Below are positions 30,499 through 64,000 of a DNA stretch of 64,000 nucleotides, piece after piece. The first letter of the stretch is position 1. Every line of letters begins with the position of its first letter. Made by a program: the position numbers and the translations under genes. This DNA is from Acidobacteriota bacterium. Lineage in GTDB: Bacteria; Acidobacteriota; UBA6911. The stretch covers positions 1,347 through 65,346 of the forward strand of contig JBEKIX010000005.1 in NCBI GenBank assembly GCA_050011535.1, given 5' to 3'. The notes beneath the pieces are model-generated. The model worked only from the letters and a program-made list of their open reading frames with translations, made no database searches and was not told the origin of the DNA.

Positions 30499-31380
30499 TC
30501 ACCTGGAATCCGGCGGCATGGTCTTTTTTGGCGCCCCCTGTGGAATTGTTTTTGGCCCTTTCTTTCGCTGAAAAGCCTGGAATTCATAGGTTACCCCTAT
30601 CTTCAGCCCCGAGCCAGGACTGAAGTGCTTGAGGCCGGCGAGGCCGGCGACATCCCAGCGCAGTCCTGCCGCATGCACACGCGCGCCCAGGAGAGCCTGA
30701 GAAAGACTCTCGTTGCCGACGCGCGGCGGTCCCTGGCGCCCGTTCACCTCTCCGACCAGTTCCAGCTTGTTTCTCACCGGAAGAACGAATGCGGCGCCGT
30801 AGGTGAGCAAATCGGCCTGCGTATTGGGAATGATAGAGGATCCGAGAATCGCCATGCCGATGTTTCCAATCACCTCTGCCTTGCCGAAGTGCTTGGCGAC
30901 GAGGGTGCGCGCATAAAACTCCGTCTCGTCGGCGCCCAGCCCGCTTTCATTTGTGGCATTCGGGAGCTGAACGGCAAACTTGAATGAAATCGCCGGACGC
31001 TTCGCGCTTTCACCCGCGAGCTTCAGTTTCGTGCCCAGAATAATGTCGCCGAAATCGCTGGTGGAATTGCCGGCGAACGTGGGGGGGATGACTGGAGTCG
31101 TCCGGTTCGCCACAGTCAAAAAGTCGCGAAAAACGCCCGAGATTTGGAATTCCGCGTATTCCCCGACGCCGACGCGCACGGAGGTTACACCGAGCCGCAT
31201 CAGGTCCCCTTCAAGACCCGACAACGTGTAAAGTTGCCGGTGGTAAAATTCGACCCCGAAGTCGGCGTGGACGATGCCTAAGGACAGCAGTTCGGGATTC
31301 TCGGTGACAAGCGGACGATCTTGCCCGAAGGCAGGAGCAGCTACTAACACTAGAGCCAGGAGTGCCACCTTTGTACGCAC
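30499..31380 (-). CDS. putative outer-membrane beta-barrel protein
   Basis: GTG start with a GGAGG RBS and signal peptide VRTKVALLALVLVAAPAFGQ, then alternating amphipathic beta-strands, ending ...GVTYEF. Confidence 0.6.
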   Translation of the reverse strand: MRTKVALLALVLVAAPAFGQDRPLVTENPELLSLGIVHADFGVEFYHRQLYTLSGLEGDLMRLGVTSVRVGVGEYAEFQISGVFRDFLTVANRTTPVIPPTFAGNSTSDFGDIILGTKLKLAGESAKRPAISFKFAVQLPNATNESGLGADETEFYARTLVAKHFGKAEVIGNIGMAILGSSIIPNTQADLLTYGAAFVLPVRNKLELVGEVNGRQGPPRVGNESLSQALLGARVHAAGLRWDVAGLAGLKHFSPGSGLKIGVTYEFQAFQRKKGPKTIPQGAPKKTMPPDSR

Positions 31381-46387: not shown

Positions 46388-47026
46388 TCAGACTCCGCGT
46401 AAGACGCCTGGCCAGATGATCTTGTGCAGCTGCACCTGCATGCGCACCCGGAGCCCGCAATCCATGACCCAGCGAGCAAGGTCCGAATAAGGAAGCACGT
46501 TGTAAACCGGAGAGAAGAGCACGACCCCGACCCGCGAGGGCAAGTCGTGCTGGACGATAACCTCAAGGGCCCAGTCAAAATCGGCCCGGCCCCCGACTAC
46601 AAACTTGACTTCGTCATTCGGAGTCAAATGCTCGATGTTTTTGTAATCGTTGTGTTCGTGCATGCCGCTGGATGGGCACTTCAGGTCCATGATTTTGTGC
46701 ACGCGCCGGTCCACACCCTCCAGCGGGACCTGCCCTCCCGTTTCCACGCACACGGTGTATCCGGTGTCGAGCAGCCCTTGAAAAAGGCGGTGGACTTCCG
46801 GATGGAGCATCGGCTCTCCGCCGGTCACAAGGACAAGCCGCGCAGGATAAGCGGAAACCGTCGCAAGGATTTCTGTTTGCGACATCTCCTTCCCTTCGGA
46901 GAAGGCATACTCCGTGTCACAGTAGGAGCATCGCAAATTGCAGGCAGTCAGGCGGATAAAGGCGCTTGGCCATCCGGCAAAACTCGACTCACCCTGGATA
47001 CTGTAATAAATCTCATTCACTTTCAT
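46388..47026 (-). CDS. queE: 7-carboxy-7-deazaguanine synthase
   Basis: IQGESSFAGWPSAFIRLTACNLRCSYCDT radical-SAM QueE signature. Confidence 0.92.
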   Translation of the reverse strand: MKVNEIYYSIQGESSFAGWPSAFIRLTACNLRCSYCDTEYAFSEGKEMSQTEILATVSAYPARLVLVTGGEPMLHPEVHRLFQGLLDTGYTVCVETGGQVPLEGVDRRVHKIMDLKCPSSGMHEHNDYKNIEHLTPNDEVKFVVGGRADFDWALEVIVQHDLPSRVGVVLFSPVYNVLPYSDLARWVMDCGLRVRMQVQLHKIIWPGVLRGV

Positions 47027-47102
47027 GGCCAGAACTCATTCTATCAAGTGCAGGTTGCCTCGGATAGGTCCGCATGGGGTTTGCGCGGCGGGCTTAATGT
47101 GC

Positions 47103-47127
47103 GAAATTGGTGACAGTCACCAATTTC
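47103..47127. terminator. 25-bp perfect palindrome GAAATTGGTGAC-A-GTCACCAATTTC at the 3' end of the PP2C gene
   Basis: Seen directly. Shares the GGTGACAG / CTGTCACC core with the 13141 palindrome. Confidence 0.45.
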
Positions 47128-47863
47128 GGAGTTCATCCGGTTCCAGCTTGATGACGACAGCCGTAATATTGTCCGGCCCGCCTTCCTCATTTGCAGCTGC
47201 CACCAGAAAATCAGCAATTTCACGAGGTGTCTTTTGCGGATCGGAGAGCGCCTTGCAGATACGTTCCTCCGGGACAGTATCCGTCAGACCGTCGGAGCAC
47301 AGGAGATAAATGTCCCCGGCGAGCGCCTCTCCTTCCAGAACATCGATGTCTACCTGCGGATGAGATCCGATCGAGCGCGTGATCAGGTTCTTTTGCGGAT
47401 GTCGGATCAGCTCCGACTTTTGCATCATGCCGTTTTCATAAAGGGGCCAGACCAGCGAGTGGTCGCGGGTAAGCTGATCGAGAATGCCGCTGCGGAGCCT
47501 GTAGGCGCGCGAGTCGCCCGCATGGGCGATGCAATACTGGCGGCCGCGAAACAGCAGGGCGGTCAGTGTGCTGCCCATGCCGGCCAGGGCATGATTCTCT
47601 CGTTGCGCATCAAAAACGCGGGCGTTTGCTTGCAGCGCCCCCAGCCGCAGAACGTCCGCGAGTCTGCCATGGTCTTCCGCGTGGGTCTTAATCCAGTCGT
47701 CAACGGACGATGCAGTCAGCTGGCTGGCGATTTCACCGGCTGCGTGTCCTCCCATTCCATCCGCCACCAGGAAGAGCCCAGTCTCTCCGTTTTCCACGTA
47801 AGAGTCTTCGTTGGAGGTTCTGACTCGTCCCTGGTTGGTCTGGCTACCATGCAAGATCTGCAA
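47117..47863 (-). CDS. PP2C-family Ser/Thr protein phosphatase (Stp1-like)
   Basis: VADGMGGHAAGEIAS and CSDGL metal-binding motifs. Confidence 0.9.
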   Translation of the reverse strand: MQILHGSQTNQGRVRTSNEDSYVENGETGLFLVADGMGGHAAGEIASQLTASSVDDWIKTHAEDHGRLADVLRLGALQANARVFDAQRENHALAGMGSTLTALLFRGRQYCIAHAGDSRAYRLRSGILDQLTRDHSLVWPLYENGMMQKSELIRHPQKNLITRSIGSHPQVDIDVLEGEALAGDIYLLCSDGLTDTVPEERICKALSDPQKTPREIADFLVAAANEEGGPDNITAVVIKLEPDELRNW

Positions 47864-48051
47864 TTCTCACCTATCCCGCTTTGTGACGTTTTCAAAACAG
47901 ATTTTATAGCACGCGCATGCTGTTAGCTTCAAGGTGCGCCGATAAGGGTCAAATCAGACGCTGGCGGTCCATGGTCTGGAGTCTCTGTGTTATCATTGGG
48001 GGTTGTACGGATTTCACGGCGCCAGTTTGCCGCCAATGAAGGCCAAATTAT

Positions 48052-49836
48052 ATGAAGCCCGGGCATGCTCAAATCAAATCGATTCTGCTTACGGTCTGCG
48101 TGCTTGCGTGGAGCGCCGGCGCCGTGTTTGCCGGCGTCAGCCGCATCATCCAGGAACGTTACCGCGGCAATTATGAAAACAAAGCCCTCTACCTGAAGAT
48201 ACCGATCATCTCGGACAAACAGTACGTGTACATCACCGGCCAGAGTTTTCGGAATGACCAGGGGCTTGCGGGGGCTACACCGCGTTTCAAGGTGGGAGAA
48301 CAGGTGCGCGTGCTTGGCCTCGACTTTGGGGGAGACGAGATCAAGTTCAAGCTCGGCGCCATCACGGGCACCGCGATTGCGGGCACCACTGTTATCGAAC
48401 TGGTTTACAAGTTCGACGCCCCTCTGCAGGACAGTTTCCCCAACAGCGGTGTTTTCGACAAGGCTCTTGCGGCGACCTTCACCGAGGGTTTGAAGTACAC
48501 CGAGCTGGATGACGCAAAGCGAAATTACGTGGAGCAGGAATTCGAGCGCATTTCGCGCGAGATCGCAACCGCATCCGGCACCGATCGGGACACGGTCTTG
48601 AAGTACGTGGCGCCGCAGCTGCCCGCCTACCAGGACGCAATGCGGGAAATCACGAATCTCCAGAATCGAAACCAGGATCTCAGCCGGCAAGTCACTCAAT
48701 CGCAAGGCGAGAATCGCAAGCTCGAATCTGATTCGAAGAGCCAGCAGGCCGAGATCACCCGACTGCGTAACCAGGCATCGAGCCTGCAGGAGAAGATGGA
48801 CAACTCCTCCTCCCAGCTTCAGAGACTGAGCGATGACCTGCGCAGCGCCCGCGGAGTTTCGCAGAGTTACCAGCGGGAATTGGCGAACCTGGAACACTCT
48901 CTGAAGATCAAAATCGATCCCAACCGGGACCTTGCGTCGCAGATCGCCGAGCTGGGACAAGTGATGCAGAAAATACAGAAGGACAACGACGACCTCCAGA
49001 ACGAGAATGGATCCCTGCATTCCAACCTCGACAAAGAACAATCAGACAACGCCAAGCTGTCGGGAGAGAATCAGGACCTCAAGAATTCGGTCCGGCAGAA
49101 GGACGACACCATCAAGACCCTCACTTCGAAGGAGGATTCCCTCGCACGCCAGTATTTCATGCTCAAACAGACCAAGGAGAACCTGGAAAACGTCACGCTT
49201 TCGATCGCCAATTTGAACACGCGCCTTGTGGAGGAAAAGACCGACGGAGGCGTCCAGTCCGGCACCATCAATGCCTATCTGGGAGACACCCTGATCGGTT
49301 CATTCGGATGGCGGCTTCCGGAGCGCTTGAACTCCAGCCAGGAGAAAGAGGGGGACGCATATTTTTCGACGGAATCGATCGATTATGTGCGCATAACTCC
49401 AGAGGAGCGTCACATTTTGCAGTCGTTGGGCGAACCCCTCAAGCTGCATGTGAGCCTCGTGTCCCGTTCTGACTCTATGGAAGTGAAGCCGGAAAAGGAA
49501 GATGCGGTGCAGCAGGTCGGAGAGCGCGACAGGGCCACGTGGCGCTGGCAGATCGCCAACCGCGGAGGGCGGGACACTCATCTGTTGCTGGCGGTGCAGC
49601 TGGTTAACAAGAACGGTGACGGCATTCCCCTGATTCAGGCCGAGCAGCTCATTTCCACGTCGAATCTGGTGCGCCAGATCCGAAACTACCTGCAGCCGAT
49701 TCCGCTGCTCTTCGGCGCCGTGCTCGGTTCTCTGCTGGCATGCATTACCGGTCTTTTCAAACGTGTCCGGCACGGCGGTCCGGTACGACGGGAACCCCTG
49801 GCGAAGACGCCCTACGCGGGGCCGAAACAGCTCTAA
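48052..49836 (+). CDS. hypothetical secreted/membrane protein with a long central coiled-coil and a C-terminal TM anchor
   Basis: Signal peptide, a roughly 200-aa Q/E/L/N-rich heptad region (RLRNQASSLQEKMDNSSSQLQRLSDDLRSA...) and a C-terminal hydrophobic helix (IPLLFGAVLGSLLACITGLF). Confidence 0.6.
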   Translation: MKPGHAQIKSILLTVCVLAWSAGAVFAGVSRIIQERYRGNYENKALYLKIPIISDKQYVYITGQSFRNDQGLAGATPRFKVGEQVRVLGLDFGGDEIKFKLGAITGTAIAGTTVIELVYKFDAPLQDSFPNSGVFDKALAATFTEGLKYTELDDAKRNYVEQEFERISREIATASGTDRDTVLKYVAPQLPAYQDAMREITNLQNRNQDLSRQVTQSQGENRKLESDSKSQQAEITRLRNQASSLQEKMDNSSSQLQRLSDDLRSARGVSQSYQRELANLEHSLKIKIDPNRDLASQIAELGQVMQKIQKDNDDLQNENGSLHSNLDKEQSDNAKLSGENQDLKNSVRQKDDTIKTLTSKEDSLARQYFMLKQTKENLENVTLSIANLNTRLVEEKTDGGVQSGTINAYLGDTLIGSFGWRLPERLNSSQEKEGDAYFSTESIDYVRITPEERHILQSLGEPLKLHVSLVSRSDSMEVKPEKEDAVQQVGERDRATWRWQIANRGGRDTHLLLAVQLVNKNGDGIPLIQAEQLISTSNLVRQIRNYLQPIPLLFGAVLGSLLACITGLFKRVRHGGPVRREPLAKTPYAGPKQL

Positions 49837-49888
49837 AGAACTTGGGTTTCGTGGCAGCGCGCGCCGTTCCCGAGATGCGCCGCGCGGG

Positions 49889-51697
49889 CTAGATTCCCTT
49901 GAAATGAAGCGCTGCAAGGCGCCGCACCATGCTCGCGTCTGCCGGTTTGAGAAGCCTGAAGTTGTACTTCTTGTTGTTCCGCGTGCGCATCGAGATTTCG
50001 TCTCCTTCCACGGTGAAGCCTCGCAGGTCCCCATAGGCGTCGAAGAAACTGTGGTCGGATTCCGTGGTTTTGAATTCGACCCCTTCATCCGTGATGCGCA
50101 GCGTCCCACGGCAGCTCGAAAAGACATGCTTGTGCTCGACGGGGAACGCGGTGGCCTGCATCGCATTCAACTGCATGCGATCCTGCAAATCCTGGATCAT
50201 CACCGTGATCCGGTCGGGAGTGTACTTGTCGACGCCTCCCAGGGCTTTAGCCTTTTCGAAATGTTCCATCGCCTGCGCAAGGTCGTTTCGGTGCCGGTCA
50301 TAGAGCAGACCGAGGTTCATGTGTGCAAGTGTGTTGTTGGGATTGAGCGAGAGGCATTTTTCGAAATTCAGAATCGCAGTGTCCAGCTGTTTCTGATCCT
50401 GATAGATAGTCCCGAGGTAGAAATAGGCTTCGTCGCCGGTTGGATCGAGTTTGAGATACTCCTGCCACTCCGAAAGCGACTTGTCCCGCGCTCCCGCCCG
50501 ATACGCGGCAATGGCCGAGTTGCGCAGGGTGGCGAGTTTTTCGCGAAACTGCTGCTGTTCCTCCTGCTGGCGCTGAAGCCGCTGTTGCTCGGCGCGGGCG
50601 GCATCCGCCAGTCTGGCATCGATCATCACCACACGCGAGGCGCTGTACTTGTCATCCGGGAAATACTGAAGGATCTGTTTGAAGTCGCCGCGGGCGCCTT
50701 GCAGATCGCCGTTGCTGAGCTTGGTGTCCCCGCGATTCTGCAGGATCTCGACCAGGTGCGCGGTCGCACCCTGCGCATATACATTTTTCTTTTCGAGCCG
50801 CAGGATGTTGTGCAAGGCATCCCAGGCGTTGTCCTTCTCGGGAGGGAGCAGAATTCCCACCTTCAGGGCGGCCTCCGCCTTGTTCTTCCACTCCTCGATC
50901 TGCTTCTCCCTGTCCTGCACGCTGGCATCGATCTTAGCGGAAATGTCCGCCAAGCGCTCACTGATCGCGATGTCGTTCGGATAGATGACCACCAGGCTCT
51001 TATACCCGTTTTCCGCCGACAGCCAGTCCTCGCGAGCGTAAGCAAGATCTGCCTTCTGGCGGACCTCTTCCGCCACCGCATTCTTCGCCTCGGTGGCGTC
51101 GGCATTGCTGGGGTCGATCTCAAGCATCTTGTTGGCAAAATAAAGCACGTTGTAGTCGTCCGGAGGCGGGAGCAACATGTTTTCTTGGCGCGCGGTCTCC
51201 AGCTTTTTCTTCCAGGACTCCAGTTCGGCGAGTTGTTCGTTGGTGAGGATGGGCACGAGCGGCTTCAATGTCAGATGCAGGTTCTCCGTGGAGTAGGGCA
51301 TCACCTCCACCTGCTGTACCAGATCTGCATAGCCGTCCTTGGCCGCCTTTACCTGGTGCCCTCCCGCTTTTACGTCCCCCAGCGTAAGCGCGGATACACC
51401 GCGCTCCTTCCCATCCACAAAAATGGTTGCGCCCGGAGGGGTGGTCTTGATTACGAGGTTGCCGAACTTCGGCCGCAGGTAAATATAGGAAAAAACCCCG
51501 ACGAAGCTGACCGCGCTTGTCAACAGGAGGATTGCCAGGGCGATAAGCAGTGTCCGAACCTTGATCCGCGCCGGTTCGGAAGGATACTCTGCCTCTTGCG
51601 ATTTGTCCTCGGGCTCGAATTCCAGTTCGCCGCCCTCCACCGGACAGAAGTCAAACTGGTCGGGATAATTATTGCCGCACTTGGAGCATTTTTTCAT
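49889..51697 (-). CDS. zinc-ribbon / PEGA-domain / TPR-repeat membrane protein
   Basis: MKKCSKCGNNYPDQFDFCPVEG zinc ribbon, a TM helix, a PEGA-like beta domain (IKTTPPGATIFVDGKERG) and multiple TPR motifs (AYFYLGTIYQDQKQLDTAILNFEKCLSLNP). Confidence 0.75.
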   Translation of the reverse strand: MKKCSKCGNNYPDQFDFCPVEGGELEFEPEDKSQEAEYPSEPARIKVRTLLIALAILLLTSAVSFVGVFSYIYLRPKFGNLVIKTTPPGATIFVDGKERGVSALTLGDVKAGGHQVKAAKDGYADLVQQVEVMPYSTENLHLTLKPLVPILTNEQLAELESWKKKLETARQENMLLPPPDDYNVLYFANKMLEIDPSNADATEAKNAVAEEVRQKADLAYAREDWLSAENGYKSLVVIYPNDIAISERLADISAKIDASVQDREKQIEEWKNKAEAALKVGILLPPEKDNAWDALHNILRLEKKNVYAQGATAHLVEILQNRGDTKLSNGDLQGARGDFKQILQYFPDDKYSASRVVMIDARLADAARAEQQRLQRQQEEQQQFREKLATLRNSAIAAYRAGARDKSLSEWQEYLKLDPTGDEAYFYLGTIYQDQKQLDTAILNFEKCLSLNPNNTLAHMNLGLLYDRHRNDLAQAMEHFEKAKALGGVDKYTPDRITVMIQDLQDRMQLNAMQATAFPVEHKHVFSSCRGTLRITDEGVEFKTTESDHSFFDAYGDLRGFTVEGDEISMRTRNNKKYNFRLLKPADASMVRRLAALHFKGI

Positions 51698-51778
51698 CGG
51701 AGCTAAAATAGCACACCCGGCTCAGGCGGGCGAAAAAATCGGTTTTCCGGGAAACGCCTGTGCCGTGCCAAGATTAAG

Positions 51779-52435
51779 ATGTTCAGCCTGAAGTGTGACC
51801 TCGAACCGTTTCTTACCGGAGGATCGCCCACCGTGGCCATGGAACATGTTGTCAAGCAGGCGAAGATCCTGGAACTCGGCTGTGGCCGCACGAAGCGCCC
51901 GCATGCCATCGGCATCGACCGAATTCCGCTGCCCGGCGTCGATATCGTGCACGATTTGAATCAAGTGCCGTATCCGTTCGCGGACAACACATTCGACGAA
52001 GTCTATGCCATTCACGTGATCGAACATATGGATTCGATTCTGCTGGTGATGGAGGAGATTTACCGCATCACACGCCCCAACGCCCGCGTGGTCATCATTA
52101 CGCCTCATCATAGTGACGCCATCTCCTGGCAGGATCCATCACACAAATGGCATTTGAACTCGTATTCTTTCAGCTATTTTGATCCGGCCTACCACACCAA
52201 CTACTACACGACCGCCCGTTTTCGCATCAAAACCAAGCATCTCGAGATGGCCTCCATCTGGAAGTCGCTCGGGCTGCAGTATCTGATTAATCTCGACAAC
52301 CGTTATCCAGCGCTGCGCTTCCTGCGCAAACTCTGGGAGCAGCACCTCTGCTACGTACTGCGCGGCAAGCAGATGGAATTCATCCTCGAGACCGTAAAAG
52401 AAGAGTCCGCAGGGATGCGGCAAGCCGAGCCCTGA
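51779..52435 (+). CDS. class I SAM-dependent methyltransferase
   Basis: ILELGCG motif I and Methyltransf_11-like downstream blocks. Confidence 0.8.
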   Translation: MFSLKCDLEPFLTGGSPTVAMEHVVKQAKILELGCGRTKRPHAIGIDRIPLPGVDIVHDLNQVPYPFADNTFDEVYAIHVIEHMDSILLVMEEIYRITRPNARVVIITPHHSDAISWQDPSHKWHLNSYSFSYFDPAYHTNYYTTARFRIKTKHLEMASIWKSLGLQYLINLDNRYPALRFLRKLWEQHLCYVLRGKQMEFILETVKEESAGMRQAEP

Positions 52436-52478
52436 ACGGGCGACAGATAAATCTTTCCTTATCTAGGCTCCATTCGTC

Positions 52479-53855
52479 TCAGATCATGCCCGTCTTGGCG
52501 CGTGGCAGGAATTCGCCCCCTCCGGGGCGTCCCATGGCTTTTCCTTCGCGGGCGATGATTTTCCCTCGCTGCACCACAAGCCAGGGATACCCGTGTACTC
52601 TCATCCCTTCATAGGCGCAGTAATCGACGCGGGAGAGCCCCATTGCTTTCGACAGGATCTGATCGGTCCTGGGGTCGAAGATCACCAGATCCGCGTCGCT
52701 CCCTACCGCGATCGTCCCCTTGCGCGGGAACAGGCCGAAGAGCTTTGCCGGCATGGTGCAGAGCAGATCCACGGCACGGTTCATTGAAATCCGGCCTCCT
52801 TGCACGGCCTCCGAAGCGATGGCGCAAAAGCGTTCCTGCACTCCCGAGAAACCACGCGGAGCCTGGAGCACGATGTCTTTCCCCAGGTCTTTCTGGCCGG
52901 CAAAGTTGAAGGCAGCATGGTCGCTGCCGATGAGCTGGATGTCCCCCGAGCGGATCGCCTTCCAGAGAACATCCTGGTGCCACGCAGGTCGCAGCGGCGG
53001 AGTGACGTAGTATTTGACGGATTCGGCGTCCTCATAGCGGTCGCTGTTGAGAAGGAGGTATTGAGGGCATGATTCGGCATACACCGTTTGTCCCCGGTCC
53101 CGCGCCGCCTTGACCTTTTCCAATGCATGCGCCGAGGAAACTCCCATCAAGCAGACCGGGGTGCGGGCGAAATCGGCGAGGGCGATGACGCGCCCCGCCG
53201 CTTCCGCCTCTGCTTCAGGCGGACGGAGTGCAGGGAGGTACTTGGCGGAGGTTTTACCCTCGGCTGAAAGGCGCCGCCACAGCAGATCGATAAGCTCGCC
53301 GTTCTCGGCATGGATGCAGGCAAGCCCGCCTGCAGCCGTTACCCGCTGCAGGAACTCCAGCACGGCGCCATCGTTGATGCGGTGCTCACCGATGCCTTCC
53401 AGTGAAACCTGGAAACTCGTAACCCCTGCATCCACCACGGACGGAATCTCGCTCAGTATCCCGTCGTTTACTTCCGACAACGCAATGTGAAACCCATAAT
53501 CCACGACGGCGCGTTGCTCCGCCTTGACCTTCCATGCCTCCACTGCCTGCGCCAGAGTTGATCCCGGCGCTATATTCACAAGGTCCACTACCGTCGTGGT
53601 ACCGCCTGCGGCGGCGGCGGCGGTTCCGGTCTCGAAATCATCCACGGTGGTCATGCCGTCGACCTGGGTGTCGAGCCGGGTATGCATGTCAACCCCGCCC
53701 GGCAGAACCCACTTGTCAGTCGCGTCGATGATTTCGCTCGCGATCTTTGAAATTTCCCTGCCGATCTCGGAAACGATCCCGCTCTTTACCAGAATATCGG
53801 CCTTGTACATATCCGTAGAAGTGATGATGGTTCCATTCTTGATCAAGGTCGTCAT
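52479..53855 (-). CDS. dihydropyrimidinase / D-hydantoinase (cyclic amidohydrolase)
   Basis: IKNGTIIT ... VLPGGVDMHTRLD metal-binding His pair and hydantoinase-family blocks. Confidence 0.9.
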   Translation of the reverse strand: MTTLIKNGTIITSTDMYKADILVKSGIVSEIGREISKIASEIIDATDKWVLPGGVDMHTRLDTQVDGMTTVDDFETGTAAAAAGGTTTVVDLVNIAPGSTLAQAVEAWKVKAEQRAVVDYGFHIALSEVNDGILSEIPSVVDAGVTSFQVSLEGIGEHRINDGAVLEFLQRVTAAGGLACIHAENGELIDLLWRRLSAEGKTSAKYLPALRPPEAEAEAAGRVIALADFARTPVCLMGVSSAHALEKVKAARDRGQTVYAESCPQYLLLNSDRYEDAESVKYYVTPPLRPAWHQDVLWKAIRSGDIQLIGSDHAAFNFAGQKDLGKDIVLQAPRGFSGVQERFCAIASEAVQGGRISMNRAVDLLCTMPAKLFGLFPRKGTIAVGSDADLVIFDPRTDQILSKAMGLSRVDYCAYEGMRVHGYPWLVVQRGKIIAREGKAMGRPGGGEFLPRAKTGMI

Positions 53856-54134
53856 AAGATCTCCAGCACAAAATGAAGCGTTTCTTCCGAAAGATCGATA
53901 GCGGATGATCGGAATACGGCGGCGGGTTTGCGGGCGCGCTGCGCCTTCGGGCTTCTCCGAGTGCCGCAGAAGCAGACCGGCGGTTCGACTATGTCTGCTG
54001 GAGCTGATGCTGAGACCAGTCCAGCAGGCCTACTGCGTCGTCCGTGTCCCTCTTGTTGCACGTCAGAGAGGGGGAGATGCGGAACACGTTTCCGTAGAGC
54101 TCCCCATTGCCAAGTCCATCAGCCGGCGCTTTTC

Positions 54135-54827
54135 CTACACAGTCGGCTGATGGGTCTTGCGATCCCGCACCAACTCCACGCCCTGCACGAGGCCCATCCC
54201 ACGGACCTCTCCGAGGCGGAGGTGCCTTTTCTGCAGCTCCTCGAGTGAATCAGCGAGTTCCGGAGTTGCCCCGGTATCCCCGGCCGGGAGTGCGACAGCC
54301 AGCCCTTTCGCAATGGTAATCATGTTGGGCTGGACTCCCCAGGGGTCGAGGCCGAACCATGTTCCGCCGGCCCGGCCCAAGCCGGTCCGAACCTCGTCGC
54401 CAATCCAAACATCGCCGTACTTGCGTATAATCTTCGCTACGATCGCTTGGTACTCCTTGAGCGGGGCGATGAAACCAACCTCGCCGTCCATTGGTTCTGC
54501 AATTATGGCCGCCAGCTGCCGGCTGGCAGCCTTACAAATCAACTCCTCCATGTCCCGGGTGCAAACCAGGTCGCGTTCCGGACAAGTCCTTTCAAACAGA
54601 GTGCGATAACGACAATCAAGGGAGCGCTTCTGTTTCCCCGGGATGCCCTGACTCTTCCGCTGCATGAAACCCGCCTCTGCATTCCGCCGGCTGCCCATGG
54701 CAGCCTTCTCCTCACCGGGCTTTTCGAGCTGCACCTCCTTCACGAAGTCATTCCTACCGTCGGGTGCGTTCCCGCCGGTCATCTCAGGCGGCCTGCAGGT
54801 AAATGCCCGATTTCGCATCGGAGGCAA
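54135..54827 (-). pseudogene. truncated class III (omega) aminotransferase remnant
   Basis: Only the middle portion is AT-like (AAIIAEPMDGEVGFIAP ... DEVRTGLGRAGGTWF ... ITIAKGL ... VRGMGLVQGVEL). The first ~95 aa of the ORF are non-homologous read-through. The ~200-aa N-terminal domain and the C-terminal ~70 aa are absent. The hutU promoter abuts the 5' side. Confidence 0.5.
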
Positions 54828-54958
54828 TTATATCAAATTCGGGGACCGCCACCTCAATACCCTAATTCCCCTCCGCCGGTCGACTTGATGGTGGCCGGCA
54901 AATGTAATAGCATGCGCCTGTTTTTCCAGGGGAAAACCCCATCCGGCAGGAGGCTGTG

Positions 54959-56626
54959 ATGACAACAACCGACACGAATCGGAAGATCCGAGCGCCTCGC
55001 GGAACCAATCTGAGCTGCAAAGGATGGCAGCAGGAAGCCGCCATGCGCATGCTGATGAACAACCTGGACCCCGATGTCGGCGAGCGCCCTGACGAGCTGA
55101 TCGTATACGGCGGCAGCGGCAAGGCCGCGCGCAACTGGGAGTGCTACCACGCCATCGTCGCTTCGCTGCAGGCACTCGAAAATGATGAGACCCTGCTCGT
55201 GCAGTCCGGCAAGCCCGTAGGCATCTTTCGCACGCACGAATACGCTCCGCGCGTTCTGATCGCCAACGCAAATCTTGTCGGCAACTGGGACAATTGGACC
55301 GAGTTTCGCAGACTCGAAGCTCTCGGCCTGATGATGTATGGACAGATGACGGCAGGAAGCTGGATCTACATCGGCAGCCAGGGAATTGTCCAGGGCACGT
55401 ATGAGACCTTCGCCTCGATGGCGCGCAAACATTTCGGCGGAAGCTTGCGCGGCAAGATTCTGCTTACCGGCGGGCTCGGGGGCATGGGTGGAGCCCAGCC
55501 TTTGGCCGCTACCATGCTCGGCGCCGCCTTCCTCGGCATCGACGTGGATCCGGAGAGAATCCGGAAAAGACTGCACACAGAATACTGCCAGCGGATTTCT
55601 TACGACCTGGATGAAGCCCTGTCTCTCGTCGAAGGCGCGGCGCAAAAAGGGGAAGCCATTTCTGTTGGATTGGTGGGGAACTGCGCCGAGGTTCTGCCGG
55701 AGCTGGTGCGGAGGGGATTCACCCCGGATGCGCTCACGGACCAGACCAGCGCGCACGATCCGTTGAACGGCTACGTTCCGGCGGGCGTCACGCTGGAACA
55801 GGCGGCGCGGCTGCGCCGTGAGGATCCGGACGAGTATGTGCGCCGCAGCATGGATTCCATCGCCACGCACGTGCGCGCGATGCTCGACCTGCAGAAAAGC
55901 GGCGCCGTCACGTTCGACTACGGCAACAACATCCGCGGGCATGCGCTCAAAGCAGGTGTCGCCAACGCGCTCGATTTCCCCGGATTTGTTCCCGCGTATA
56001 TCCGCCCCCTGTTCTGCGAGGGACGCGGTCCTTTTCGCTGGGCCGCGCTGTCCGGCGATCCCGCCGACATCGCCGCGACGGATGACCTGGTGCTGGAGAT
56101 GTTCCCGGAAAACGAGGCGCTCTGCAACTGGATCCGCCTTGCCCGCGAGCGCATCCGCTTCCAGGGACTGCCGGCGCGAATTTGCTGGCTCGGCTACGGC
56201 GAGCGCGCCGCTTTCGGGTTGCGGATGAACGAGCTGGTGGCCTGCGGCAAGATCAAAGCGCCTATCGTGATCGGCAGAGATCACCTCGATTGCGGTTCCG
56301 TCGCGTCCCCATATCGCGAGACCGAGTCCATGAAAGACACATCTGATGCGGTTGCGGATTGGCCTATTCTGAATGCTCTGCTCAACACCGCCAGCGGCGC
56401 AAGCTGGGTGTCATTTCATGACGGCGGCGGCGTCGGCGTGGGATATTCGATGCACGCCGGCCAGGTCACCGTGGCCGATGGCACGAGCGCAATGGCTCGC
56501 CGTATCGAGCGTGTGCTCACCAACGATCCCGGCATAGGAGTCGCGCGCCACGCGGACGCCGGCTACGGCGAGGCTAAGGATTTCGCCCACAGCAAAGGCA
56601 TCAAGATCCCCATGCCCGCGGAATAA
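54959..56626 (+). CDS. hutU: urocanate hydratase
   Basis: Strong urocanase signature throughout ([28 protein letters not shown]). AGGAGG RBS. Confidence 0.95.
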
Positions 56627-56687
56627 TCATTGAAATAACCTCGCCTCTCGGGAAACAGTCCTGGTACCGCGGCACGTATGATTCCCC

Positions 56688-57343
56688 GTGGCGGACATGG
56701 ATAACCAAAGGTTCAGACTCCAGATCGATCTCAGGGAAAAGGGTTCGTGTCTCGCGGCCCTTGCGGCGGATTGCGATCTATTTGAGACAAGTTTCCAAAG
56801 GCTGCGTATTGGCGACTACATTGTCAACGGGACAACGGGACCGTTCTTATAGAGCGCAAAAGCGCTGCCGATTTTGCCGTGTCGATCGTTGACGGCAGGC
56901 TGTTTCGCCAGGCTCGGGCAATGGCGCGCACGTCTTTGCGCACCCTTTTTCTCATCGAATCTGCCGGTGCAGAGGAAGCATGTTCGTTGCATCCTCACGC
57001 TCTCTTCGGCGCTTGCATCTCCCTTGCGTTGATGTGGCGCCAGCCGGTGATCTTCAGCAGGAATCCTGAAGAATCCCTCTTGACGCTGCGGCTCGCTGCA
57101 GAACAGACGGGGTCGCTCGATGGACTGGAACTAATTCGCTGCGGCTATCGCCCGAAACGAATGGAGCGCCGCAAACTTTTTGTCCTTCAAGGTCTCCCCG
57201 GAGTCGGCCCCAAACTCGCGGCATCTCTCCTGTCCCATTTCGGTTCCGTCGAAAATGTGATGAAGGCCGGCGTGGAAGCACTTCATCAGGTGCGCGGATG
57301 TGGCCCGAAGAAGGCAGCAGCGCTCCGTGAAGTCCTCGGCTGA
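56688..57343 (+). pseudogene. ERCC4 (XPF/Hef-like) nuclease with HhH2 domain, frameshifted by an 8-bp tandem duplication
   Basis: Frame 0 gives MDNQRFRLQIDLREKGSCLAALAADCDLFETSFQRLRIGDYIVNG, then a stop. Frame +2 continues TVLIERKSAADFAVSIVDGRLFRQ ... LQGLPGVGPKLAASLL ... (ERK nuclease motif plus helix-hairpin-helix). The switch coincides with AACGGGAC AACGGGAC at 56826-56841. Confidence 0.6.
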
Positions 57344-57412
57344 GTTTTTGTCGCGAAACGTAGTCGGCTCTGCTCTTTCATGCCAGAGCCGACTACGTTT
57401 CGCGACAAAAAC
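57344..57412. terminator. 29-bp perfect inverted-repeat hairpin (11-nt loop) between convergent ERCC4 and DUF3467 genes
   Basis: GTTTTTGTCGCGAAACGTAGTCGGCTCTG ... CAGAGCCGACTACGTTTCGCGACAAAAAC. Acts as a bidirectional terminator. Confidence 0.6.
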
Positions 57413-57415
57413 TAG

Positions 57416-57718
57416 CTACTGGACCATGGTGCCGGTCGGTTTGCTCATGCCCGCCTGCTTCTCGCGCTGCGCCTGCAGGGCCTGGATCAGGCCGTCGACG
57501 ATCTGATTCGGGATCACCAGCACGGCACGCACGGGCGCGGGCAAAGTTCCGGTCTTTTGCATTCGCAGGGCCTCTTCATCGTTCATGGGGCCGAGCACGT
57601 CGCAGAAACTGAGGGTGCAATCGATCGGCGACATGCTCACCTGGACGTAGTTCGCGTAAACCCTCGGCGACGTCCGCGAATAGTCAGCAATGATCTGCAA
57701 AGGTCTTTCTTCACTCAT
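57416..57718 (-). CDS. DUF3467 domain protein
   Basis: YANYVQVSMSPIDCTLSFCDV matches the DUF3467 core. Confidence 0.65.
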   Translation of the reverse strand: MSEERPLQIIADYSRTSPRVYANYVQVSMSPIDCTLSFCDVLGPMNDEEALRMQKTGTLPAPVRAVLVIPNQIVDGLIQALQAQREKQAGMSKPTGTMVQ

Positions 57719-57847
57719 GGTTCGCTCCCATCAGGCTGCCCCCAACCTGGGCAGCAAACCTGGTGCAGGCTCCTGATCCGGCCAGGGAAGGCGTGTCTTC
57801 CGATCATCGGGCCGCAACAAAATGCCAAGTTATTCTTGCGCGAGCCC

Positions 57848-58195
57848 TTAGCCGGGGGGCCAGCGCATGGTTCTGCCGCCCATCACGTGCAGGTGCAGGT
57901 GAAAAACGGTCTGGCCCGCCTCCGCGTTCGTATTGATCACCGTGCGAAAACTGTGCAGGCCCTTGTCCTTCGCCACGCGCGCCGCGGCGAGCAGCAAGTG
58001 TCCCAGGAGTTGACCGTCTTCATCGCTGGCGTCCGCCAGCGTCGCAATGTGCTTGCGCGGCAAGACCAGCGCGTGGACCGGAGCCTTGGGGTGGACGTCC
58101 TCGATGGCAATGCAGTAGTCGTCCCCATGGATTACGCGCGCCGGCCTCTCGTCGGCGATGATCTGGCAAAAAACGCAACCGTTCCATTTCGTCAT
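57848..58195 (-). CDS. HIT-family (histidine triad) nucleotide hydrolase
   Basis: CVFCQII N-terminus and the HLHLHVMGG histidine triad. Confidence 0.9.
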   Translation of the reverse strand: MTKWNGCVFCQIIADERPARVIHGDDYCIAIEDVHPKAPVHALVLPRKHIATLADASDEDGQLLGHLLLAAARVAKDKGLHSFRTVINTNAEAGQTVFHLHLHVMGGRTMRWPPG

Positions 58196-58245
58196 GATTT
58201 TGCTGTAAGCATAAAGAAGCAGCCGCCGGACGGCAAATGGAATCA

Positions 58246-59502
58246 TTATTTCAGGCGCTCGATTTCGGCGCCGAGGCGGGCCAGCTTTGTTTCGATGTGG
58301 TCGTAGCCCCGGTCCAGGTGGTACACGCGATCCACGATGGTTTCACCTCTGGCGACCAGCCCTGCCAGCACCAGGGATGCGCTTGCTCGCAAGTCCGACG
58401 CCAGCACTTTAGCGCCGCTCAAAGGCCTGCCTCCCTTGACGATGGCGCGGCGGCCGTCGACGGTGATTTCCGCCCCCATGCGCACCAGTTCGTGTGCGTG
58501 CAGGAACCGGTTTTCGAAGATCGTTTCGGTGATGACGGCGGTCCCGCCGCCTTGCGTCATCAGGGCCATGTACTGGGCTTGCATGTCCGTCGCAAAGCCG
58601 GGATACGGAAGCGTGGTCAGGTCCTGAGACTGAATGGGATCGCGTCCCTGCACCCGGGCGGCGTCGGGCGCTTGGATCTGAATCCCGGCCCCGTTTCGTT
58701 CGAGCTGCGCGAGGAGCGAACCCATGTGATCCGGCCGGCAGTTGCATATTTCGACATCGCCGCGCGTAATCGCCGCTGCCACGGCGAAGGTACCGGCTTC
58801 GATGCGGTCAGCGATGATGCAGTGCCGGCAGCCGTGCAACTCATCGACGCCCTGGATTCGGATCGTGCGCGAGCCCTCTCCCTCGATGCGCGCCCCCATC
58901 TTCCGGAGGAGCTCCGCCAAATCGACCACCTCGGGTTCGCATGCGGCGTTGTCGAGCACGGTTTCGCCTCGTGCCAGACAGGCAGCCATCATCAGGTTCT
59001 CGGTCCCCGTCACGGTGACCGTGTCCATAAGAATCGTTGCGCCGCGGAGCTTTTCGCAGCGCGCCTCCACATAGCCGTGGACAATTTCGCAGCGCGCCCC
59101 CATTTTTTCAAGGCCCATGATGTGGAGATTGACCGGGCGCGCACCGATCGCGCAGCCTCCCGGGAGGGAAACGCGCGCGCATCCGAAGCGCCCGACCAAC
59201 GGCCCAAGCACGAGAATAGATGCGCGCATTGTCTTGACCAGCTCATAGGGCGCCTCAAGCGAGGAAATTCGCGCTGCCTTAAGCCGGGCAATCCCCAATG
59301 GGTCGATTTCAACATCGGCGCCCAATTCGGCCAGCAGGCGGCGTGTGGTGAATACGTCCTGTACGCGGGGAATGTTTTCGAGTTCCACGGTTTCCGCGGT
59401 AAGGAGTGCGGCAACCATGGCGGGAAGCGTCGCATTCTTCGCCCCGCTGATCTCCACGCGGCCCGACAGCGCTCTTCCACCCACGACTCGAATCTTGTCC
59501 AT
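58246..59502 (-). CDS. murA: UDP-N-acetylglucosamine 1-carboxyvinyltransferase
   Basis: MDKIRVVGG ... [11 protein letters not shown]-terminus, and a Cys-containing active-site loop region. GAGGGA RBS. Confidence 0.95.
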
Positions 59503-59616
59503 ATCATCCCTCGTCAGAAACGGTGCGAAATATGGGACAGGTCCAATGCTGCTAACGTAAGCAAAACTCAAGAAGACGCCACGAATTTCACAAATTCCAC
59601 GTAATCTTCCATTCGC

Positions 59617-60501
59617 CTAGATTTTCCTGCGCGCGACGATGCAGCGCGAAATCCCTTGAATGTCTGCCGCAATTTCGTCCACGGCCAGACGCGCGCGCTC
59701 GGCGAGTTCCGCGACTTCAGGCGCCTGTCCGGCGCCGATTTCCAGCAGAAGCCGGCCTCCCGGAACGAGACGCATGGCGGCCTGCGGAATGATCCGGCGG
59801 CATGGATCGAGTCCCGACTCTCCCCCGAAGAGCGCCTGGAAGGGCTCATGATCCCTGACCACGATGGACAGATTGGGCATATCCTGTCCTGCCACATATG
59901 GCGGATTGGAGAGTATGAGATCGAAAATCGAACCTTCCGGAAAGCACTCGAGCAGGTCACTACAGACGAAGCCGATGCGCTCGCGCACGCCGAGCCGAAT
60001 CGCGTTTTCCCGAGCCACGGCAAGGGCCTCCAGGGAGACGTCCGTCGCCCAGCCAACCGCATGCGGCGCTTCATGCGCCAGGGAGATCGCAATGCAGCCC
60101 GAACCCGTGCCCACATCTGCGAAGCGCACCGCGCCCCCATGGCTGCGCGCCAGTTCCAGTGCCTTTTCCACCAGGAGCTCGGTCTCCGGCCTGGGAATCA
60201 AGACCGCCGGAGTCACCCGGAACGAAAGCCCGAAAAACTCGCGCTTCCCCGTCACATATTGCAGCGGCTCACCCGCGACTCGCCTTTGCACAAGAAGCGA
60301 AAACTTCCCATATGCGCCAGAGGTCAGCTGATCCTGGATATGACCGAGAACGCGAGATCGTTCCCAGCCGAGAACATGAGCCATGAGAATTTCGGCCGTA
60401 AGCCGGGGAGAATCCACGCCTGCGCGCGCGAGCGATTCACTCGCCCCGCGCAAGGCCAGCCAGATCGTACCGGGAATCTCCTGCCTCGACTCCGAGTCCA
60501 T
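59617..60501 (-). CDS. prmC: release factor glutamine N5-methyltransferase
   Basis: DVGTGSGCIAISLA SAM motif and the NPPY catalytic motif. Confidence 0.93.
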   Translation of the reverse strand: MDSESRQEIPGTIWLALRGASESLARAGVDSPRLTAEILMAHVLGWERSRVLGHIQDQLTSGAYGKFSLLVQRRVAGEPLQYVTGKREFFGLSFRVTPAVLIPRPETELLVEKALELARSHGGAVRFADVGTGSGCIAISLAHEAPHAVGWATDVSLEALAVARENAIRLGVRERIGFVCSDLLECFPEGSIFDLILSNPPYVAGQDMPNLSIVVRDHEPFQALFGGESGLDPCRRIIPQAAMRLVPGGRLLLEIGAGQAPEVAELAERARLAVDEIAADIQGISRCIVARRKI

Positions 60502-60544
60502 TATGCCGGCTCGCGGAATGACGGGTTCATTCCCTCGTCATTCA

Positions 60545-61618
60545 TCAATTGCTACCTGCCTGCTTGAGTTTCTCCGCCTGAAAATGAGTGATCAGGGCCT
60601 CAAGGATGGGATCCAGGCCGCCGTCCAGAACGCCGGCCAGATCGTGTGTGGTCAGCCCGATCCGATGATCAGTCACACGGTTCTGCGGGAAGTTGTAGGT
60701 TCGGATCTTCTCGCTGCGATCCCCGCTTCCCACCTGGTTGCGCCGGTTTTCCGCGATGGATTTCTGCTGCTCCTGGACGGCGAGGTCGTACAGGCGCGAA
60801 CGCAACACGCGCATCGCCTTGGCCCGATTCTTGATTTGCGATTTTTCGTCCTGGCAAGACACGACCAACCCTGAAGGAAGATGCGTGATGCGCACCGCGG
60901 AATATGTGGTGTTTACCGATTGGCCACCCGGTCCGGAAGAACAGAAAGTGTCCGTGCGAATGTCCTTGGGATCTATTTTGATATCGACGTCATCCGCCTC
61001 CGCCAAAACCGCGACCGTGGCAGCTGAAGTATGGATGCGGCCGCTGGCTTCGGTGGCTGGAACCCGTTGGACGCGATGCACGCCGCTCTCGTATTTGAGC
61101 TTGCTGTACACGCGGTCTCCCTCGACAATCGCGATGATCTCCTTGTAGCCGCCCACTTCCGAAATGTGCTCTTCCGTAACCTCCACGCGCCACCCGCATT
61201 TTTCGGCGTGGCGGCTGTACATGCGGAATAGTTCGGCGGCAAACAGCGTAGCCTCGTCTCCTCCCGTCCCCGCGCGGATCTCCAGCAGGACGTTCTTCTC
61301 GTCGTTCGGATCCTTGGGCATCATGAGCCATTGGAGATTTTTCTGGCAAGCGCCGGCGCGCTCTTCCAGCGATGCCAGTTCCTCTTCCGCCATCTTGCGC
61401 ATCTCGGGATCCGATTCGGAGTGGAGCAGCGATTTCGTTCCCTCGATGCCTTGGAGCAGATCCTTGTACTCCCGGAATCTTTCAACGATCTCGGCCAACT
61501 CCCTGTGCTTCTTGGCGTGCTTCTGGTAGGTGGAAGGATTTGCCAGAACCTCCGGGTCCGCCAGCAGCCGGTTCAGTTCCTCGAATTTTTGTTCCAGTTC
61601 GTTCAGCTTATCGATCAT
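60545..61618 (-). CDS. prfA: peptide chain release factor 1
   Basis: PAT-type RF1 with the GGQ motif ([11 protein letters not shown]). Start at MIDKLNEL (61618) gives 357 aa. Confidence 0.95.
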
Positions 61619-61688
61619 GGGGTTATCCGTTGAGATTATAGGATATATCCCGGATTCCAGCCAGGAAGGGCGCGATGGGGGAGGGCCG

Positions 61689-62663
61689 CTAAGCCGCGGC
61701 CTGAGCTTCGCGAGCCTTGACGCTGTCCAGCTCCAGCGCTTCCTGCAGCGCGCGGATCGCCACTTCCAGCTGATCATCGCTCGGAGGCTTGGTTGTAACT
61801 CGCTGCAGAGTCAGGCCCGGAAGAACGATCAGCCGGAAAAAACCGCGCTGGGCGCGGGGCGCAGACAAGCGGATCAGTTCGTAGGACAGGCCGGAGATTA
61901 TCGGAATCAGGATCACGCGGGACAGGAAGATGGCCCAAAAGGCCTTGAACTTGAAAATGGAAAAAACCACGATGCTGACCACCATGACGAAGAGCAGGAA
62001 ACTGGTGCCGCAACGCGGGTGCAATGTCGACTTCCTGCGCGCGTTCTCGACCGTCAGCTCCTCTTTCGCCTCCCAGGTGAAAACAACCTTGTGTTCAGCG
62101 CCGTGGTACTGAAATACGCGCTTGATATCCTTCATTGTGCTGATCAGCAGGATGTAGGCAAGGAAAAAGACGACGCGAATCATGCCGTCGACCAGATTGA
62201 ACACGAACCAATTGTGGACGGCCGCGAAATAATTCTTCAGCCAGGTTGTGATCCAGAGCGGCGCCAGGATGAAGACCGCGACGGCCACGACCGCGGCAGC
62301 GCCCATGGACAGTGCCGTCGGGAGCCATCCGCCTTCCGGAGCCGCTGCGGCCGGTTCCGCGCCGGCGGTTTCCGACTTTGGCGCCGCGTCGGCCATTGCC
62401 GCGTTGAACGAAAAGTTCAGCGTGCTGATGCCGAGCATAAGAGATTGCACCAGGACCGCGAATCCCCGAATGATAGGCCAGGTGAGAGGTTTCCAGAGAT
62501 CCGCCAGGCGGCGCACTGCTTCCTTCTTGATCGCCATGGAACCATCCGCGCGGCGCACCGCGACGGCATAGGCATACGGCGTGCGCATCATGACGCCTTC
62601 GATCACAGCCTGCCCGCCGACAAGAATGTCTTCCGGCGAGCCTTTTGTACCGCTTCCTGGCAT
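61689..62663 (-). CDS. DUF1385 (YqhQ-like) membrane protein
   Basis: [13 protein letters not shown] start, multiple TM segments and YHGAEHKVV. Start chosen at MPGSGTKG (62663, GAGAGG RBS) to avoid overlap with rpmE. Confidence 0.8.
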
Positions 62664-62688
62664 GAAACGACCTCTCACGTCAGCAACG

Positions 62689-62889
62689 TTACTTCTTGCC
62701 GTACTTCTTCTGGAATTTTTCAATGCGTCCGGCGGTGTCGATCAACTTCTGCTTGCCGGTAAAGAAAGGATGACAGGCTGAGCAGATCTCCAGGCGTATT
62801 TCTTTCTTCGTGGAACGGGTCTCGAATTGATTCCCGCAGGCGCAACTTACCATCACTTTGTGATATTGGGGATGTATATCCTTTTTCAT
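62689..62889 (-). CDS. rpmE: 50S ribosomal protein L31
   Basis: [12 protein letters not shown] ... [10 protein letters not shown] zinc-ribbon L31. Confidence 0.97.
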
Positions 62890-63017
62890 ACGGACCTCGC
62901 AAAACTTTGGATTATACCAAAAGCCGCTGGAAGGCGAGGTACAAAAAACGCGTTGTCGTGATTTATGAGCTGCCCGACATCGATGTGTCGTCCGCTAATT
63001 GTTACAAAAACACGTAC

Positions 63018-63047
63018 TTGACAATGGTCGAAGGCTTAAGGTATAAA
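63018..63047 (+). promoter_or_regulatory. candidate sigma70 promoter of rpsA (TTGACA-18-TATAAA), with a roughly 180-nt leader
   Basis: TTGACAATGGTCGAAGGCTTAAGGTATAAA seen directly. Confidence 0.45.
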
Positions 63048-63227
63048 AGTCGGTCTTTATTCTTGTGATCGAAGGAATGTTAACCCTTGGTATCATTTCA
63101 GGCTTGGCACCTAAACTCTGCGGGTAATCCGCTTCTATTCCCACCGGATCACAGGGCTATAATCGAATTCATGAAGATCCTGAACAGGTGCTGTAGGGGC
63201 CGGTTCGGGTCAATTTAGGAGGAGAGA

Positions 63228-64000
63228 ATGTCATCGGATATCAACGACGCGCAGACAACCGCAGGAGGTTCTGCGGAAGGAAGCGCCCCATCCCGGGCGC
63301 AGTCCCACCCGGCCGCCGAGCACCAGGATGAAAACAGCTTTGAAGCGCTTCTCGCGGCGCACGAAGGAAGAACTCAGAGCTTCTCCGAGGGGGAGGTGAT
63401 CCGTGGAAAGGTCATCGCGATTTCAGGTGGCGGAGTCATAGTAGATGTTGGCTTCAAGTCCGAGGGGATTATCCCCGTCGCGCAATTCACGGACGAACAG
63501 GGCCGCGTCGGCATCAAGGTCGGCGATGCCGTCGATGTGTTTCTGGAGCAGACGGAAGATTCGGAAGGTTATGTCGTGCTCTCGCGCGAAAAGGCCGAGC
63601 GCATGAAGATCTGGGACGAGATCGAGCGCGCCTATCGAGAAGGCACGACGGTCAAGGGCCGCGTGATCGAGCGCATCAAGGGCGGCCTGGCAGTGGACGT
63701 GGGCGTGCGCGCCTTCCTGCCGGGATCGCAGATCGACCTCCGTCCAGTGCGAAACCTGGACAGCCTGCGCGGTGAAGAGTTCGAGATGCGTGTCATCAAG
63801 GTCAACAAGAAACGAGGCAACATCGTCCTTTCCCGTAAGGCAGTCCTCGAAGAGTCGATGAAGGAAGAAAAGGCCAAGACCCTCGAGGTGCTCGAGGACG
63901 GGAAAGTGATGGAAGGCATCGTCAAGAACATTACCGACTACGGCGCCTTCATCGATCTCGGCGGCGTCGACGGACTGCTCCATATCACGGACATGTCCTG
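63228..64000 (+). CDS. rpsA: 30S ribosomal protein S1, partial (the N-terminal S1 domains)
   Basis: TTAGGAGGAGAGAATG RBS. Repeated S1 domains (GEVIRGKVIAISGGGVIVDVGFKSEGIIP; VKGRVIERIKGGLAVDVGVRAFLPGSQ). The ORF runs off the window end. Confidence 0.93.
   Translation, partial: MSSDINDAQTTAGGSAEGSAPSRAQSHPAAEHQDENSFEALLAAHEGRTQSFSEGEVIRGKVIAISGGGVIVDVGFKSEGIIPVAQFTDEQGRVGIKVGDAVDVFLEQTEDSEGYVVLSREKAERMKIWDEIERAYREGTTVKGRVIERIKGGLAVDVGVRAFLPGSQIDLRPVRNLDSLRGEEFEMRVIKVNKKRGNIVLSRKAVLEESMKEEKAKTLEVLEDGKVMEGIVKNITDYGAFIDLGGVDGLLHITDMS

Follow-up and report, generated by a model that had tools for sequence, protein, structure and literature searches.

The closest described relatives of the gene analysed in this study are the XPF nuclease of Aeropyrum pernix (2bgw/2bhn) and the C-terminus of Hef (1j22, 1x2i), both of which have the same architecture as the protein discussed below, with an ERCC4 domain followed by (HhH)2. 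In crenarchaeal XPF the PCNA-binding (sliding-clamp) peptide sits in the C-terminal tail that follows HhH2. The ERCC4/XPF/Mus81 family was listed under 'Archaea & Eukaryota' in a 2012 census of PD-(D/E)XK nucleases (PMC3424549), and a literature search for bacterial XPF/ERCC4 proteins found no dedicated study or experimental characterisation. The bacterial ERCC4-(HhH)2 family is under-described, though public annotation already says ERCC4-domain protein.

Two kinds of genetic event are also relevant to this locus, which carries a short tandem duplication. The first is the ordinary frameshift pseudogene. The allele described here resembles such pseudogenes in that a short unit, whose length is not a multiple of 3, has been copied exactly head to tail, in that an early stop follows within a few codons, and in that the intact allele is otherwise identical. 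Nothing essential differs between the two, except that the allele here recurs in environmental assemblies rather than in a single genome, and the duplication allele is an ordinary kind of frameshift pseudogene event. The second is the tandem-repeat genetic switch of Salmonella mutL, which works with 6-bp repeats (PMC2955026). The two cases are alike in that the copy number of a short tandem unit changes inside a DNA-repair gene and both states are found in natural populations.

Identity of the nuclease gene

The window, meaning the whole 64-kb stretch of DNA that was analysed, contains a locus that is predicted to encode a short bacterial XPF-type nuclease of 212 aa, composed of an ERCC4 nuclease domain and a C-terminal (HhH)2. 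An earlier sequence-only reading of this DNA had proposed a short ERCC4/XPF-type nuclease with a C-terminal HhH2, and both the profile alignments and the structure-chain alignments bear this out. The intact protein (P0121) aligns over residues 5-211 with residues 8-214 of A. pernix XPF (2bgw, E 4.9e-23), and its residues 164-212 match HHH_5 (E 3.5e-11) and HHH_2 (E 8.7e-10) and align to HhH2 of A. pernix XPF and Hef. The PDB chains, at 219 aa and 214 aa, are similar to it in length. A. pernix XPF and Hef share the conserved GDY-x8-ERK-x3-D arrangement and have no gap at the position of the duplication, where the alignment with 2bgw is likewise ungapped (query LRIGDYIVNGTVLIERKSAADFAVSIVDGRLFRQA vs LPMGDYLVSDSIIVERKTSSDFAKSLFDGRLFEQA). 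By homology to A. pernix XPF, the intact protein would be a homodimeric endonuclease that acts on branched DNA, for example 3' flaps or forks.

The protein also differs from the archaeal enzymes. The host here is bacterial (Acidobacteriota by the names given in the sources) and the sequence has diverged. In the intact allele the match to the Hef nuclease C-terminus spans profile positions 568-775 of 781 (E 7.8e-44), whereas the scores against the NCBIfam equivalog models fall below the cut-offs, both for archaeal Xpf (NF040956, 76.9 against a 300-bit cut-off) and for Hef (NF010337, 149.9 against a 610-bit cut-off). Judged by these scores, the nuclease is a homologue of archaeal Xpf/Hef and not an equivalog. 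Unlike crenarchaeal XPF, P0121 has no C-terminal tail after HhH2, ending one residue past the last aligned HhH2 position.

A homologue search returned 950 matches at E <= 0.001, and the organisms named by the sources were Acidobacteriota. The best 120 of these matches (P0001-P0120) were all single-frame proteins of ~180-290 aa with ERCC4 and usually HhH domains. The motif GD[Y]-x8-ERK-x3-D was present in 118 of these best 120; the remaining two each have a single substitution in the motif at unchanged spacing. Comparison with the 87%-identical orthologue in a related contig (L007) gave a dN/dS of 0.14 at a dS of 0.47, so the gene is normally under purifying selection. No second ERCC4 copy was found by tblastn within the 64-kb window, and PADLOC assigned neither the nuclease nor the adjacent 100-aa protein to a defence system.

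The duplication and its effect on the protein

The window carries a perfect 8-bp tandem duplication at 56826-56841 (AACGGGAC x2), which can also be read as CAACGGGA x2 at 56825-56840; intact alleles have one unit. It is the sole perfect 8-bp tandem duplication in the window. However, the chance expectation for such a duplication in 64 kb is ~0.8 and at least one occurred in 55% of shuffles, so the repeat is statistically unremarkable alone. It is meaningful because it coincides with the frame break of the ERCC4-(HhH)2 nuclease gene, exactly at which it falls, and because an intact allele is available for comparison.

The 5' fragment of the gene runs on the plus strand from ATG 56697 (alternatively GTG 56688) to the premature TAG at 56850-56852, and gene calls on intact alleles begin at the ATG equivalent to 56697. 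This upstream frame encodes ...RLRIGDYIVNGTTGPFL, and its full translation up to the TAG is MDNQRFRLQIDLREKGSCLAALAADCDLFETSFQRLRIGDYIVNGTTGPFL. It contains the N-terminal part of ERCC4 with the GDY codons at 56811-56819, followed at the end of the fragment by 5 out-of-frame residues. The 3' part (56834-57343, plus strand) lies in the +2 frame and reads NGTVLIERKSAADFAVSIVDGRLFRQ...LQGLPGVGPKLAASLL...REVLG. It holds the ERK codons at 56852-56860, x3-D, the rest of ERCC4 and HhH2, and ends at TGA 57341-57343. When intact P0121 was aligned to the window by tblastn, the match divided into two segments, with residues 1-47 on 56697-56837 in the first frame and residues 44-212 on 56834-57340 in the other frame at 100% identity. 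The split lies precisely at the repeat, as the sequence-only reading had placed it. That reading had also held that dropping one unit restores a continuous nuclease of ~215 aa. Deletion of one AACGGGAC unit indeed gave an unbroken 648-nt ORF (215 aa from GTG, 212 aa from ATG), the 212-aa product of which is identical to P0121. The repaired product matches Pfam ERCC4 without a break (profile 1-134 of 140, E 4.7e-18), has the HhH domains, and matches the C-terminal nuclease part of Hef, again without a break.

The frame shift of +2 creates a stop 3 codons past the repeat, which divides the catalytic signature GDXnERKX3D. In the repaired or intact allele this signature lies on one polypeptide (GDYIVNGTVLIERKSAAD), whereas in the window allele GDY and ERK are in different frames and no ORF has both. 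The N-terminal peptide (51 aa from ATG) has GDY without ERK-x3-D. The internal starts of the 3' part, GTG 56879 and ATG 56921 (140 aa according to gene callers), both lie 3' of ERK, and the restart products of 140 or 154 aa lack the whole catalytic motif. Since no single polypeptide has the full signature, the allele would be a catalytic null. By this motif logic, a repair nuclease that is dispensable to the organism has most likely lost its function in the window allele. In the other duplicated alleles the GTG 56879 start is gone as well, through a change at 56881. One product of a duplicated allele, P0134, carries an L-to-F substitution within the conserved GLPGVG hairpin, which is a weak hint of decay.

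The duplication in other contigs

At least 24 public contigs, spread over 33 index blocks, encode the intact protein P0121. Ten loci (L011-L020) have 0 mismatches to window 56620-57420 besides the 8-bp gap. In a comparison that used 10-kb flanks, two contigs, one of 376 kb from JGI 3300038429 (L033) and one from ENA ERZ27250073 (L034), were identical to window 46697-64000 (17,304 bp) except for the eight bases.

Carriers of the duplication were reached through the 140-aa product reported by gene callers, while the 154-aa and 54/51-aa ORFs of the window had no match in the protein collection. The protein cluster includes members of 140 aa and 103 aa whose first residue is an internal methionine; JGI names these truncated calls 'Fanconi anemia group M protein'. 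In the contigs with the duplication the DNA reads AACGGGACAACGGGAC, as in the window. Five such contigs were found, in JGI 3300017998 (L003), JGI 3300038426 (L004), JGI 3300038415 (L006), Logan SRR7027865 (L005) and ENA ERZ27250006 (L021, with the 103-aa member P0132). These contigs differ mutually by SNPs, so they represent distinct haplotypes. A literature search on the sample accessions returned no paper. Single-unit contigs are obtained from JGI, ENA and Logan as well, in sister samples. It had been proposed earlier that the duplicated unit be checked for polymorphism in metagenome data, and one- and two-unit contigs do coexist across all three sources. The occurrence of the duplication in five contigs from other samples and pipelines indicates that it is present in the reads of several samples and is not an artefact of one assembly.

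A search of the genome and metagenome contig collections with the junction pattern (variable gap, 1-3 units) gave no match, although the pattern does match the fetched loci. In a related-locus search of metagenome contigs, L007 was the only close relative returned. The 103-aa protein P0129 (L022) was considered as a further disruption of the gene and was rejected as a contig-end truncation.

Population structure of the two alleles

A single marker site separates most of the duplicated contigs from the rest. At 56881 (plus strand) the window and the 22 single-unit loci have G, whereas the five other duplicated contigs have C, a synonymous change (GTG to GTC, Val). The C is thus present in 5/5 non-window duplicated contigs and 0/22 single-unit loci, and the Fisher exact probability for this linkage is ~6e-5 (arithmetic on the counts for the 27 close loci). 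The flanking SNPs form a mosaic, in which L021 and L003 resemble the background of L035, L006 resembles that of L023 (57179C, 57286G), and the window has the L033 background. The haplotype of the window, which combines the duplication with 56881G, was absent from every other contig examined and could be a consensus chimera of co-occurring strains. Index counts for the near-identical lineage gave ~7 duplicated contigs plus the window against ~40-48 single-unit contigs, or roughly 15%; this is a rough figure, given that each contig is a consensus and that one sample may have been assembled more than once (L003 and L005, for instance, look alike). Substitutions within the close population were mostly non-synonymous (4N/3S vs L001, 2N/0S vs L023), counts that are too small to interpret.

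The earlier suggestion that the inactivation is very recent holds only in part. It agrees with the identity of the window haplotype to intact contigs over 17.3 kb, but not with an allele class that has a linked SNP and is found on several backgrounds.

Neighbourhood of the nuclease gene

The neighbourhood consists of housekeeping genes and is syntenic in all relatives, with urocanase and the nuclease followed by a minus-strand 100-aa protein, a HIT protein, murA, prmC and prfA. An NCBI Acidobacteriota MAG has the urocanase as MGD0308064.1 and, under locus tag ABSC02_02150, the 100-aa protein as MGD0308066.1; the one record between them, MGD0308065.1, therefore falls at the position of the nuclease gene. 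In syntenic contigs dnaA begins ~10.5 kb downstream of the nuclease gene (L033 20501-20639), so the locus lies near the probable replication origin, and the window ends ~3 kb before dnaA.

The nuclease gene and the minus-strand 100-aa gene, which converge, flank a hairpin (57345-57410) whose stem is perfect over 30 bp and whose loop is 11 nt long. It is unique in the window and has a folding energy of ~-56 kcal/mol (76-nt stretch folded as RNA). Its sequence is 100% identical in L007, against 85-93% for the coding DNA on either side, so conservation is higher in the hairpin than around it. Its probable role is that of a bidirectional terminator or of a site for protein binding. In L004 there are 10 scattered mismatches in the last ~45 bases inside the hairpin, which look like contig-end assembly noise. 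The mismatches in L004 10415-10482 (window 57335-57402) were considered as compensatory variation, and this was rejected on the grounds that the stem is not kept.

Two other features of the window are recorded here. On the minus strand at 54135-54827 there is a remnant of a class-III aminotransferase that matches only positions 171-276 of 403 of the Pfam Aminotran_3 profile. The same truncated gene occurs in relatives (215-aa calls), and in L001 it is split into pieces of 144 aa and 42 aa. It looks like an older pseudogene common to the whole population. The window also has two perfect 9-bp tandem duplications, at 25339-25356 (GCTCGATCT x2) and at 30631-30650 (GAGGCCGGC x2), where ~0.24 would be expected in 64 kb; by their length, these preserve the reading frame.

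Origin of the duplicated allele and alternative explanations

The data presented in this study make it very probable that the duplication is a real, natural loss-of-function allele segregating beside the intact allele. A tandem copy of the 8-bp unit CAACGGGA would have been made, with replication slippage or a microhomology-mediated event as the most likely cause, and this copy would have landed between GDY and ERK, the two halves of the catalytic motif, breaking the frame. In the single-unit sequence (GTC AACGG GA CCGTT C) a 1-nt microhomology (C...C) bounds the copied unit, and there is a 5-bp inverted repeat, AACGG-GA-CCGTT. Slippage or template-switching during replication is the standard explanation for duplications of this kind.

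In the simplest history, the null allele had one main origin, persisted and spread. The duplication would have arisen once on the commonest haplotype (L033/P0121), and the window would retain this original duplicated state with 56881G. A descendant of the duplicated haplotype would then have acquired 56881C, after which recombination, or the mixing of strains in assembly consensus, would have moved the segment onto other backgrounds. An independent second duplication in the lineage of the window, or reversions, are possible as well. The linked SNP and the several backgrounds suggest that this organism pays at most a small fitness cost for losing the nuclease, and that the loss is perhaps close to neutral.

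The alternative that survives best, though it is unlikely, is that slipped-strand mispairing adds and removes the 8-bp unit again and again, so that the nuclease is switched off and on within the population. Exact loss of one unit from a perfect tandem duplication is mechanistically easy. One- and two-unit states coexist in the same sample series, and the tandem repeats of mutL provide a precedent (PMC2955026). The duplication also has at least three different flanking backgrounds, which resemble L033 in the window, L035 in L021 and L003, and L023 in L006, although these mosaic flanks are explicable by homologous recombination or consensus chimeras. Additionally, the duplicated haplotype of the window lacks 56881C and equals intact contigs over 17.3 kb, which would fit a separate event of very recent date, or else a reversion that took place recently in the other lineage. 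However, 56881C is fully linked to the duplication in the carriers other than the window, which points to one origin followed by recombination. A phase-variable tract would have several units and multiple copy-number alleles, whereas only 1 or 2 units, and no 3-copy allele, were seen across the 27 loci and the window. Wild type has no pre-existing repeat, just the 1-nt microhomology. These same features set the locus apart from the mutL switch, as here the wild type has a single unit, the unit is out of frame, there are two states only, and the linkage of 56881C indicates a single origin. A recurrent on/off switch whose OFF state is kept at ~15% by way of altered recombination or mutation behaviour under some conditions is slightly harder still to credit.

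It is very improbable that the true genome has a single unit and that the duplication in the window is an assembly or sequencing artefact. This was one of the two readings that had been offered beforehand, the other being real inactivation, and only the latter stands, since the identical 8-bp duplication is present in five further, independent contigs, which were assembled from different samples and come from three sources, namely JGI, ENA (k141_ contigs) and Logan. An artefact would agree with the fact that the window otherwise equals single-unit contigs over 17.3 kb and that its combination of duplication and 56881G was not found elsewhere. However, over those 17.3 kb the eight bases are the sole indel between the window and either L033 or L034, so the assembly is not indel-prone. 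Sequencing platforms are not known for errors that take the form of an exact tandem copy of 8 bp.

A programmed -1 or +2 ribosomal frameshift, or other recoding, that yields a full-length nuclease from the two frames is more improbable again. The frames overlap by ~20 nt ahead of the stop and a shift there would join them, but the product would gain 2-3 residues in the GDY-x8-ERK spacing, which is invariant across the family. There is no X XXY YYZ heptamer in 56784-56852, from the upstream stop of the +2 frame to the TAG, and RNA folding of 56800-56930 showed nothing unusual (z = -0.45). Orthologues sharing the two-frame arrangement had been named in advance as the sign of a programmed frameshift. 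This layout was found in 0 of the best 120 homologues (of 950) and in none of the near-identical alleles, and the DNA of L001, L002 and L007 has one unit.

Eukaryotes have non-catalytic ERCC1-like partners, and a truncated 140- or 154-aa product from an internal start could in principle be a non-catalytic DNA-binding protein with its own function, in keeping with ORFs from GTG 56879 and ATG 56921 that stay open and score for HhH and with the 140 aa that gene callers report, but this is just as improbable as recoding, given that the GTG 56879 start is gone in the other duplicated alleles, that P0134 has its L-to-F change in the GLPGVG hairpin, that no ribosome-binding site or promoter evidence was found, and that the window holds no catalytic partner copy.

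Implications

For annotation, the locus is best recorded as a real pseudogene allele with a frameshift, and should neither be 'corrected' as an assembly error nor split into two hypothetical proteins. The reversible switch, if true, would also highlight a widespread, conserved and unstudied bacterial XPF branch. Read as a natural loss-of-function allele, the duplication provides a clean natural case of a null allele of a DNA-repair nuclease persisting and spreading in an uncultured, presumably soil-dwelling bacterium, and its persistence points to the bacterial XPF-type enzyme being dispensable under in situ conditions.
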